A stretch of 64,000 bases of DNA from contig NW_026865611.1 in assembly GCF_026571515.1 (NCBI RefSeq), forward strand, positions 62,001-126,000, read 5' to 3'. A program made the position numbers and the translations under genes. How positions within the stretch are numbered: position 1 is the stretch's first letter; each line of letters begins with the position of its first letter. The stretch is from Ruditapes philippinarum (taxonomy: Eukaryota). Positions 59,615 through 64,000 of this stretch are shown here, piece by piece. The notes under the pieces are model-generated. The model did no database searches and was not told the origin of the DNA. It was given only the letters and a program-made list of their open reading frames with translations.

Positions 59615-61385
59615 CGAAAATTGCAGGCTCAGTTTGATTGAGTCAATGAAAAAGTTAAACATGACTCACGCCTCCTATTAGCGGCTTAAGCGGTACTCAA
59701 TTTGCATCACTTAAAAGCACTGGGTTCAATAATCCCAAGGGGCCAAAATATAATAACACTTAAGTGAAGCGGTGACTTACATTAGAAAATCAATCAGCTA
59801 AGTTTAGAACCTTACTCTAAACGTGATAACAAAATTGGAATTTAAGAAACATAAAAATATGTCAAACTTCAATAGATTTTGTGTGCGTTTAACACTGTTA
59901 TTAAGCACTTAATATATAAACCGTATGCACACTAGTTTTATTTCAACATAAATACGGCTATTGATGACACAAGTATTATAGAATAAAATGTTCGATCAAA
60001 GTCTGCCATAAATAAATTAACTCAATTCTCTTTAAAATCAAGAAGTATGATTTTGGAATTGATAAACAGAAATTTTGGCATAATTTAAATACACTTGGAC
60101 ATAAATATAATCTATATCTATCTTAACACATTATGCATGACATTTTGAGTCTGAAGTCAGTTTGAAAATGTATTGCGAATGACATCAGCAATAACAAACG
60201 CTTGGTCTAACTAATTTTTTCTTTGTAGACAAGCGTTCCATGAGTCATGTTTCATTTGTTAATAGTTTAACATAAACAAACGTCACCTGAAATAATTCAT
60301 ATAATATTTCATTCTATATTGAAATCGGATGAATTGATAAATGAGCAATGCACATATTTTACTTTTTGTTTCAATGGATACTAAATGCAACTATTGTAGA
60401 AATACTCGGTTCTTGTCATTTATTTATAAGTTCAACTCAAATTACACAAAACAGATTGCAGAATCGCAGAATTAAGTTATAACATCTTTGTACGAAACTT
60501 TGTACAAGAAATTTAAACCTTAATGAGCACAGTTAATCACCTAAATAAATATTAAAGATTTTGTCGCATATTCCATCAAGTTTCATTTGAATAATAAAAA
60601 AAATATTGAGGAATGCTGCTCTAAAAGATATTTTTCACGAACAATTGAAAAGACTAATGATTTGATAAATGTTACAAAATTAATACTAATTAAATTGACA
60701 TTTAGTTTGAAGGAGATCTCAAAAAAGCACTAGGTTTGATTTAATACTGAGTGTTTACTTTTAATATGCACCAAGTATTTCAGTTTGTCCGCTTAATAGT
60801 TATTTGTGACCGTTTTGAAATGTAGCACTATTTGAGGGACATATTTCATTCTCATAATAAAAAATATATGAAGAAAAACCTACATTTTAAGATGCGCTCA
60901 TAAAAGTCAACCCAAGTGCTCAAATCATGTTTAAAGTATCAATTTGATTTTTTTCTTTGTAACTCGGTGCTTGAGGCGTGAGGGATGTTGCATGTATTCA
61001 TTATTCCTCATGCACAGACTCTATCAAACCGAGTCTGCAATTATCTTGTAATTTTGTTGTGATTAATGCTTCCGAGGGATCACTTTGTTTCCAGATTTTA
61101 TATTTCACAACATCAGGTGTCAAGTACTGTGTGGCAGCTGTAAAAAGTTGCCCCGTACTTCACTTCAGTGTTGTTATATGTTTCTGGTCGTTCGGGATCA
61201 TTGATGCCAGCACTATTAAGTGTTGAGAATTGAGTACCGCTTAAGCCGGTGCTAGGGGACGTGAGGATGTTGCACGTATTCATTTATCACTCATGTACAG
61301 ACTCAACCAAACCGAGTCTGCAATTCTCTTATTTTTTGTTGTGATAATGCTTTCCAGGGATAATATTGTTTCCAGATTTTTGACC
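59615..61385. repeat. Further R1 fragments: 59615-59705 (+), 60960-61100 and 61228-61380 (-, tandem)
   Basis: TTGCAGGCTCAGTTTGATTGAG and CGGCTTAAGCGGTACTCAATT on + strand versus AATTGAGTACCGCTTAAGCCG and CAAACCGAGTCTGCAA. Confidence 0.6.
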
Positions 61386-62569
61386 TGATTAAACGATGTT
61401 CTTAATAGTAAGGTTAATATTAATCTCATGGAGTTTACTAGAATACTCCTTGATCATATTTAAATCTTCAAATGTCAGCAGTTTGTTTAGGTCCGATTTA
61501 TGACTTTTAACTGTTTAAAGGATATGAATGATTCATAATTTGTGTTATGACTACAAGAAGAACACATATTGCACGCATTAGAATTATGGTTTAATTATAT
61601 CAGTTAATCCAGGAACGACATGTCCATTCTAGATCATATATACCTGAATTTATATGATTTATCGGTTTTTAGTGACGTATATTATATATATATATATAGG
61701 TCCAAAGGATCGGATGCTTTCAATACATCAAAAATATTGTATATTTGTAACATATAGAATATGTTAACTATAATGAAAATATTTATTTACTTACTTATAT
61801 TGTGTATATTCTATATCCTTTATCTCTAAAAATCGTTTAGATTATCTATTATGTTTTGGTCGAATGTTAATAATAAGGAGACAACGGAAATACATGTGTT
61901 GTGTGAAATATTGATTTTGTACCAATTTTAGAAAATACTTCATTCAAACACATTGTGTAAGATATTATTTATAAATTACATTTTTGTCATAAGAATGTTA
62001 TAATATTATATAACTAAAAAACTAATGTTCAATATTGATAAAGCATGGTTGGTAAAATAAAAACTTTGCCGATTTATTCTTTTTATATTAAACAGTTCAT
62101 TATTACTGTCAAAGATTGGTTGTTGATATAAAATATTGATTTAGTAGAACAATGTTTATTCAATGCTTTCAGTGAGCATTTTCTTTAACTAAAGTAACAT
62201 TTTGATCATTATTTCTCAATCAATTTGAGCTGAATTAGCGATACATATTTTTGAAAGGTCGACTGTTATAATGGTCATTAATTGAGAATAAAAATGTTAA
62301 CAAAGATACAAACAAAAAACTGCCTTAAGTAACAAAGACTGTCCTATTCTTTTTATCATGTTTATGATACACTCCGGAGGATATTTTTAGAAATTTCCGG
62401 AAGTCCTGTGAAAAATTGACTATTAAAGTAAAGAAGAATATGAACTTGAAAACAATTATAGCGAAATGAAAAAAAAATGTTTACTTTACTGATCACCATT
62501 TTCACTTGAATGGTTTAAATTTCGCTTTCATAGAATATAAGAAAATACCTTCTAGAATTTTTGTGCAAA

Positions 62570-63095
62570 AAAAGTGTAACCTTTTCATTGTGATATTTTT
62601 TATGGCAGAAAGTTAACACTTAATCTTCTATTGTTTCCCAGATTAAGATCAATGCGGACAAAAAATATTGCAATACCCTTAAAGATGTATAGAACATCAG
62701 TTATCAAAATGAACATCAGTTATCAAAATGAATGTTTTATTATCATTAATTGCATTGTTAGAAACATAACATTTTCCTGTTGATCTTTACTTTCATAGGT
62801 TAATATTTATATTGTTCTTTTTTACAGCTTCTACCATTTCGAGATGTTATCAGTCGTATGGGATCACAGAATCCCCCAGATTTCACAAGCAGCATTAGCA
62901 AAAGAAGTTCTAGCCGAGATTCCTGACCAGATAGTGTCTTTTATGAAGATAAATTGAATCAAGTCTAAACGACAAGACCTGCTACTGCTACACCTCCATA
63001 CCCTTTATTAAAACACAATTAAACAATGTAGTTGTCAACTTAAACGTGTAATACATAAAAAACAGTGTACAAAGTATTGCGCCTATTTTATACAA
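62570..63095 (+). pseudogene. Decayed duplicate of copine exon 20b with flanking intron and 3' UTR (pseudo-exon 62828-~63007)
   Basis: Collinear with ~45680-46112. Acceptor tttttttacag| is intact; +1 C frameshift in AATCCCCCAG; GGA>TGA in the ancestral frame; PPPY altered to TPPY. Confidence 0.88.
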
Positions 63096-63174
63096 ACCCA
63101 GCAAACACCTGACGTTGTTTCAACGTTGGATCTAAGTTGGATTTATGTCACGACGTCAAAATCCTAAATACAAA

Positions 63175-64000
63175 ATATGAAAAACAAGATCAACAAGGAA
63201 AGGTGGCGTTCAATGAACGCAACCCCCATATGACCCAGCAACAATAACCAATGGCAAGGAGCCCAGGCGGACCCCAAACATAAAAAGGACAGGGCAACGA
63301 CACGTTAATCATTAAATGATAAATAATTTGTAACCGATTAGGAATTCAAAGAAAATAATAATAGGCCCACAAAGGGAAGGGGACAGAAGACCGGGGAAGG
63401 GGGAGGGGGGTTAATCAAAGAAATAAAAACTAGAGGCAATGGGGAAGATACTTACCGTAGACGAGAAAACAACAAGGGACACAAGCAAAAGTGTCACCAA
63501 AACAGTATGAAACAACATAGACATACATCTGAGGAACACAGTGGGGCGCCGCCTTGGAACGGTCAGCAGCATAATAATGACTGCTGGGGAGTTTAAACCG
63601 CGTTAATGGTGCACCAAACCTCGCTCTTAGCCCCACCATGTTCCTATAAACGAGACAGTGTAAATAAAATGAATCCCCGCCAAGTGAAATTCTAACAGTT
63701 GTCATGGTTACAAAAGGTTAAATAAGTAAAACACTAAAATGATCATGTAGAAACATATAAAAGTAAACCCAATGACCATAACAAAAGTACTCAATGTCCT
63801 AAAGGAAGACAGAGCAACAAGAAAATCACCTACAAGGGCCCGACGAAGCAAGGCAGAAGACGAACATTAAGACAATTCAGTCCCAAAGGGCTTTACGAAC
63901 TATCCATCATAGAGTCTCCTACTTGGTTCGTCAGATGCAATCAAAAGAGGAAAGCGTAGTGTCCAACTGTAAAAGGGTTGAACACTAAACATGCAGTATG
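63175..64000 (-). mobile_element. 3' end of a Penelope-like retroelement, probably Naiad clade (ORF C-terminus, SECIS-like hairpin, 3' region); runs off the window
   Basis: 64000-63893 reads HTACLVFNPFTVGHYAFLF*LHLTNQVGDSMMDSS*, like the xTACLVVNPITV...DSM terminus I recall for these elements; downstream block CTGACCGTTCCAAGGCGG. Confidence 0.65.
63855..63920 (-). promoter_or_regulatory. SECIS-like (type II) hairpin with one mutated core base
   Basis: Helix I AGGAGAC/GTCTTCT; core ATGAT; helix II GGATAGTTCG/TGAATTGTCT; unpaired TAAA; apical CCC/GGG mini-stem; the 3' core reads TAAT instead of TGAT. Confidence 0.6.

Follow-up and report, generated by a model that had tools for sequence, protein, structure and literature searches.

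Selenoprotein-encoding Naiads of clams and spiders have already been published (Craig et al. 2021, PMC8557442), and that paper describes two elements, Naiad_Mmer and Naiad_Scon, that closely resemble the family reported here. Like our family, both have the endonuclease-first frame of a Penelope-like element, carry UGA at the first Cys of the CCHH motif, at the Cys ahead of GIY-YIG and at DKA+8, and place a selenocysteine insertion sequence (SECIS) right behind the stop codon. As in our family, the UGA adjoining the SECIS of Naiad_Mmer acts as the stop and a UAA lies inside the hairpin; by eye, the published Naiad_Mmer 3’ end aligns with ours nearly base for base. An RT6 UGA of Naiad_Scon falls in the column of our codon 866. 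The differences found lie in the 3’ core of the SECIS, which is UAAU in our family as opposed to UGAU (Mmer) and GGAU (Scon), and in the first Cys of the CxC motif, which is UGA in our family and in several metagenome relatives, whereas the Mmer and Scon consensi have Cys.

Eukaryotic SECIS elements at large (RF00031; core UGAN/KGAW) share with our family helix I, the internal loop, AUGA, a 10-bp helix II, the apical AAA and the position behind the stop, but the 3’ GA is absent from our family. A precedent for the substituted base comes from k-turns: Kt-23 of Thelohania solenopsae and the SAM-I G2nA variant have a 2n adenine and A·A at 2b·2n. For these, PMC3985660 reports the k-turn fold and L7Ae binding; the Thelohania motif is ribosomal, has a 3-nt bulge and was paired with archaeal L7Ae, whereas ours is a SECIS with SBP2 as the expected partner. 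The preliminary description of this locus had presumed the phenomenon to be described already, and for selenoprotein Naiads it is; a SECIS with an A core would be the new part. A literature search that covered subscription journals thinly found no report of a eukaryotic SECIS without the 3’ GA and, in the same, mainly non-subscription, literature, no follow-up to Craig et al. on selenocysteine (Sec) Naiads.

The window is the whole stretch of 64,000 nucleotides of Ruditapes philippinarum DNA analysed here (contig NW_026865611.1, positions 62,001 to 126,000). At its right-hand end it contains

63172..64000, minus strand: the 3’ part of a Naiad copy of the YU subfamily, 1.43 kb in all, 5’-truncated and frameshifted

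The copy starts about 600 nt past the window end, and its RT core and RT6 TGA lie in that outer part. It is dead, being 5’-truncated and carrying insertions of one base at four places in what is left of its ORF. YU is a young subfamily of the family; by identity to the natural copy L045, the subfamilies fall at 79-82% (O), 85-90% (M1/M2) and 96-100% (YS/YU). When TGA is read as U, L045 has a frame of 1065 codons with six TGA codons, and in this single frame the GIY-YIG endonuclease lies N-terminal to the RT, the arrangement by which Naiads are recognised. The frame also has a CX2-5CxxC finger, a KR-rich block, the CxC motif (appearing as UxC) and the DKA motif. A Pfam search with the L045 protein itself returned 0 families; its homologs carry PF01541 and PF00078. 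Family copies show 5’ truncation, partial tandems and inverted pieces, as Naiads do. General Rfam scans of the element loci gave no hammerhead match, and no twister matched at E<=10 in 63100-64000. Frame and motifs mark the element as a Naiad, which bears out its initial identification, and by eye its family stands near Naiad_Mmer. A G+C-richer stretch lies in the Naiad tail at about 63640-63540 (minus strand). Inverted repeats of 32 nt, 3.9 kb apart (63097-63128 and L031:4995-5026), flank the copy, which was probably inserted into a DNA transposon. About 7 kb past the window, a frame of at least 395 codons (L031:8811-9998, minus strand) looks by eye like a beta-propeller (NHL-like) protein.

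A SECIS-shaped hairpin had been proposed at the end of the ORF, and each of the parts then named was located where it had been placed. The hairpin and its surroundings, all on the minus strand, comprise

63857..63918: the SECIS-shaped hairpin, matching Rfam SECIS_1 at 33.0 bits (gathering score 35)
63920-63914 with 63861-63855: helix I, 7 bp, with changes on both sides in five of seven pairs
63910-63906: the 5’ core AUGAU, canonical, its ATGA unbroken in 151 of the 154 aligned pieces that cover it
63905-63896 with 63879-63870: helix II, 10 bp, all paired in the MFE structure, with two-sided changes in all ten pairs among 14 sequences
63894-63892: the apical AAA
63890-88 with 63884-82: the apical mini-stem
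63869-63866: the 3’ core UAAU, whose A at 63868 takes the place of the G found in SECIS elements
63934-63923 with 63851-63840: a basal extension helix beneath helix I
63990-63954: a second conserved hairpin in the final coding codons, 11-bp stem and 9-nt loop
63895-93: a TAA within the apical loop, the next in-frame stop, met only on read-through of the TGA

The fold has a z-score of -4.55, and none of 200 shuffles was equally stable. The hairpin was the best of eight Rfam matches with E<=10 at positions 60000-64000, matching the whole SECIS_1 model (E 6.8e-4). Across 14 related sequences, 15 of the 17 pairs of helices I and II are changed on both sides, and 91.6% of the helix cells pair, as against 36.6-53.8% in slid registers. 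These measures confirm that the hairpin is genuine and beyond chance.

Much of the canonical SECIS definition is present: two helices, an internal loop, a helix II of about 10 bp with covariation, the 5’ UGAN and the unpaired apical AA. The 3’ KGAW that completes the GA/GA tandem is not, since the family reads UAAU throughout, and on inspection the hairpin has no other GA/GA register. The search with a SECIS profile that the preliminary description recommended matched the window copy, which, like other A-core copies (32.7-33.0 bits), stayed under the gathering score; G-bearing copies of the same hairpin scored 40.1-41.6 bits. We therefore do not file the hairpin as a canonical SECIS, because its 3’ core is UAAU family-wide, without GA/GA. 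Three signs had been named that would speak against a SECIS, namely loss of the 3’ GA from the family consensus, stems without covariation and no conserved in-frame TGA; the first is found, while the stems covary and the UGAs are conserved. Scans of four loci found no second SECIS-like match inside a copy’s own span; a weaker one at L034, considered as a second SECIS of the element, belongs to a neighbouring copy. The basal helix and the final-codon hairpin that flank the SECIS are conserved, and are present too in relatives with a canonical core. Among 14 Sec-Naiads the final-codon hairpin has a conserved 9-nt loop and two-sided changes in 8 of 13 pairs; it might serve in template recognition or in termination.

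The A at 63868 had been read as a G>A hit in the window copy. It is instead the state of the family: the genome contains 876 exact matches to a 27-mer that ends in TAATG and three to its TGATG version (not strict copy numbers, as the assembly may contain allelic duplicates), and A stands at the core in all 29 other best-matching copies. The private change of the window copy in this region is a G>A at 63928, and the A at 63920 is common to three of the 29 other copies. An older form of the 5’ arm has 528 matches, and the 30 loci fetched gave 27 A, 0 G, two other letters and one unreadable core. Among 144 de-duplicated copies covering the hairpin, 127 have TAAT, 11 TGAT and six another core, the TGAT copies having come from searches that selected for G. 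TAAT is the majority in all four copy groups of this set, and every subfamily has it. With the core column masked, G copies fell at scattered positions of the tree, one of them inside O, two inside M2 and three at or in Y. Another six, which are decayed and may be relics of a G phase, were unplaced, and two more align poorly. The six best SECIS_1 matches in the genome, with 130 of about 35,290 RNA candidates scored, all come from the window’s family. A looser 5’-arm pattern (20 of 630 matches fetched) led to nothing beyond this family and an unrelated repeat, and a set of nine loci with a GTGA-type pattern also turned out to be an unrelated repeat.

The core was compared in relatives and in the host. 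A metagenome scan, from which the best 80 of 209 Naiad relatives were kept, found UGA at one or more conserved Cys columns in 39 of the 80, some at five sites; on this count Sec-Naiads are far commoner than the four published families. Thirty relatives had their 3’ end aligned, 19 of these have a SECIS shape, and the core is G in 19 of 19 top hits, by a script that left the core position free and with some of the 19 being near-duplicates. The relatives’ cores rest on this custom script because Rfam missed the SECIS of host SelK and reached its cut-off in only one of 20 relative loci. Three relatives (L218, L220 and L224) have a SECIS shape and no UGA at the columns covered. In the host, the SelK gene (L267, G000:C10825 about 226600-220680, minus strand) ends in GGU-G-R-stop, and about 1.1 kb behind this one gene lies a hairpin of canonical SECIS shape with a G core. 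The genome has two tRNA-Sec genes. Since the SECIS shapes of the relatives, of Naiad_Mmer and Naiad_Scon, and of host SelK have G, the G-to-A core change is, on this comparison, derived in the Naiad family of the window. There is no sign of altered host machinery, because every other SECIS core seen retains G.

An extension past position 64000 had been suggested as a check on whether in-frame TGAs align with Cys of related proteins, and at four codons they do. The TGA codons of L045 are

codon 130: first CCHH Cys
codon 141: Cys ahead of GIY-YIG
codon 430: first Cys of CxC
codon 568: DKA+8
codon 866: RT6 region
codon 1050: stop codon of the family ORF, equal to 63943-41 (minus strand)

UGA is retained at codons 130, 141, 430 and 568 in 42/44, 44/44, 51/52 and 57/61 copies, respectively, with only three covering copies below 95% identity at the first two sites; TGC or TGT occurs in none of the 201 copy-sites at these four codons. 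In an alignment of 40 homologs, Cys occupies the same columns in 18/20, 17/20, 29/35 and 34/39 rows, and the W in most non-Cys rows at 430 and 568 is probably TGA translated by table-4 gene callers. Column 866 has no Cys among the 40 homologs (Ser 17, Asn 7, Asp 3, other 5, gaps 8). In the first 100 of 447 matches, codon 866 is TGA in 74 and TCA in 26; UGA866 marks M and YU, and Ser is found in O, YS and 8 of 12 outgroups. A stop at this codon would truncate the RT just past the YLDD motif. The column flips between Ser and UGA repeatedly (UGA in Scon, L206 and M+YU, and back to Ser in YS). We dropped the proposal that UGA866 was gained after the core change, as the order of the two events is not fixable. 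The retention of UGA at conserved Cys columns supports the reading that near-full copies would encode a selenoprotein with four or five Sec sites, depending on the subfamily, and agrees with the earlier proposal that the family recodes UGA.

The last TGA, at 63943-41, is a different case. The preliminary description doubted that it encodes Sec and attributed it to compensating indels around the residues LFDC, and the relatives bear this out: Naiad_Mmer and L186 have one T fewer at the site and read L-F-D-C-V-stop, and by eye a +1/-1 indel pair separates the region from more distant relatives. Of 15 O-subfamily copies, five that share linked changes have TAA instead of this codon, as do 195 of the 2209 X21 reads, and L205, the closest metagenome relative, has TAG. 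The codon stands 30 nt ahead of the core, below the minimum UGA-to-SECIS distance of 51-111 nt given in PMC3753652, and Sec at this position was rejected on both grounds; the nearest candidate Sec codon (866) lies about 580 nt upstream of the SECIS, well beyond that minimum. Craig et al. argued likewise for Mmer that the UGA beside the SECIS is a stop (PMC8557442). By these comparisons, TGA 63943-41 is the working stop of the family ORF, codon 1050 in the L045 frame. The hairpin had been described as overlapping the ORF end; because the ORF ends at this UGA, and not at the TAA of the loop, it lies just behind the ORF.

Subfamilies with the A core have evolved under selection. Among the 1043 codons compared between the sister subfamilies YS and YU, both with the A core, 21 synonymous and 10 replacement changes were counted (P 3e-8), and after UGA568 the ratio is 13 to 5 (P 4e-6). 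M1 and M2, also with the A core, differ by 13 synonymous to 3 replacement changes over 238 codons, and by 8 to 1 after UGA866 (P 3e-5). Ahead of codon 130, the sister comparison gave no selection signal (2 synonymous to 4 replacement). The dN/dS between subfamily majorities is 0.055-0.126; private post-insertion changes have pN/pS 0.61-1.56. Purifying selection between A-core sister subfamilies implies that the protein behind the UGAs was still needed.

We had sought to date the A core by the distance from O to Y (dS about 1.1), and withdrew the estimate, because the SECIS block may have been exchanged between the two. In the stretch that begins at the stop and runs 62 nt past the SECIS, 8 of 149 positions distinguish O from Y, against 31 and 33 of 148 that distinguish them from L205, whereas their ORFs are about 20-25% apart, about as far from each other as from L205. 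The near-identical block of 150 nt spans 63943-63795 (minus strand) and its counterparts in O loci such as L113 and L135. It would be either a module that was exchanged, in which case recombination may have moved the SECIS between O and Y, or a segment under unusual constraint. The 3’ UTR likewise looks younger than the ORF between M and Y.

Two RNA runs gave 310 and 776 unstranded reads on the 4-kb element, mainly in its 3’ tail; the endonuclease region was covered to a depth of no more than about 2, and the 5’ ORF had little coverage. These reads neither show nor exclude full-length expression. Two further runs labelled RNA-Seq (X21 and X22) were rejected as expression evidence and treated as DNA: their loose ends show GATC, 77% of the reads continue into unlike sequence and both strands are equally represented, so that they behave like GATC proximity-ligation DNA libraries. 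At 63867, the core A neighbouring 63868, another letter appears in 5/9 (X23), 4/14 (X24) and 12/3201 (X21) reads; in X23 and X24 it is probably from one transcribed old copy.

We consider it probable that the hairpin is a working, though probably weaker, SECIS with a family-wide A core, through which four to five UGAs would be read as selenocysteine. Alternatively, the A core might function poorly or not at all, and the UGAs might be read by another route, such as the adjacent helices or near-cognate decoding as Cys, Trp or Ser. The published requirements lend this some weight: GA/GA is termed invariant in SECIS and held essential (PMC3316567, PMC1874613), the tandem is required for SBP2 binding and the G of its A·G pair recurs in all SELEX winners (PMC1874613), and tandem mutations abolish L30 binding (PMC3706390). 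Two extra conserved helices do flank the SECIS, and codon 866 does alternate between Ser and UGA. The same helices, however, occur in relatives with a canonical core, and the 5’ core and helix II remain intact. Any other route would have to serve four to five UGAs in series, only one of which among the L045 Sec candidates (568) is followed by C, and the four Cys sites show no reversion to TGC or TGT. We regard this alternative as unlikely. That the family is non-autonomous, moved in trans by another Naiad whose SECIS is canonical or which has Cys codons, draws on the scope of the genome survey, in which 130 of about 35,290 candidates were scored; yet the best SECIS_1 matches of that survey and the loci fetched with the looser pattern led back to the window’s family or to an unrelated repeat, and the dN/dS of 0.055-0.126 that separates the subfamilies, where private changes give about 1, is that of a protein under selection. 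Trans-mobilisation was thus already largely refuted, and we give it very little credence.

A-to-I editing of the transcript, by which 63868 would regain a G-like base, would fit the sequence context, in which this A lies within an RNA stem with U as its 5’ neighbour. A 5’ U in a stem favours ADAR. Among 40 of 166 rows, however, no row showed T>C at 63868 (9 and 14 reads from two RNA runs, those at the core coming mostly from older copies), and inosine has no 2-amino group, which the sheared pair uses. Editing appears highly improbable. A canonical family SECIS mutated in the window copy alone would agree with the canonical cores of L205 and, in their published form, of Naiad_Mmer and Naiad_Scon; against the 876 TAAT and three TGAT matches and the 29 of 29 copies with A, it has next to no chance of being right.

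The preferred reading, a working SECIS with an A core, suggests the following mechanism. The hairpin would be the 3’-UTR Sec-insertion signal of a high-copy Naiad family and likely recruits host SBP2/eEFSec, so that four or five UGAs in the endonuclease-reverse transcriptase frame would be read as selenocysteine. If, following the nomenclature of PMC3985660, the 5’ GA corresponds to k-turn positions 1b and 2b and 63868 to 2n, the core would adopt a k-turn fold in which 2b·2n is an A·A pair held by one hydrogen bond instead of two, and SBP2 would probably bind it more weakly. According to the same paper, which knows A·A at 2b·2n from one ribosomal k-turn, the A·A pair formed by an adenine at 2n is isosteric and has a single hydrogen bond, and the k-turn still folds and binds L7Ae, L7Ae being the protein family of SBP2’s RNA-binding domain. 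Translation would end at the UGA 30 nt ahead of the core, too close for recoding, and the full-length protein would then mobilise its own RNA.

GA/GA has been regarded as the one invariant part of the eukaryotic SECIS, and this family puts the rule to a natural test: its recent copies number in the hundreds and need four to five UGAs read, yet the core is A across several subfamilies. A tolerance of core mutations that depends on context is reportedly suggested by the title of Martin 1998, which could lessen the surprise of an A core. The family offers ready-made G and A versions of one hairpin for reporter, binding and structural work. On balance, we lean towards the broader view that a SECIS without GA/GA recodes up to five UGAs in series, in two distinct retrotransposon lineages of one host (possibly by swapping of the 150-nt module), and belongs to a class that pipelines miss. 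SECISearch3 discards candidates without GA-AG, according to PMC3753652; if our reading is true, selenoprotein searches have a blind spot in which A-core SECIS elements are filtered out, and SBP2, like L7Ae, accepts this k-turn variation. More speculatively, a weaker signal might let the retrotransposon limit its output or reduce its draw on host selenium.
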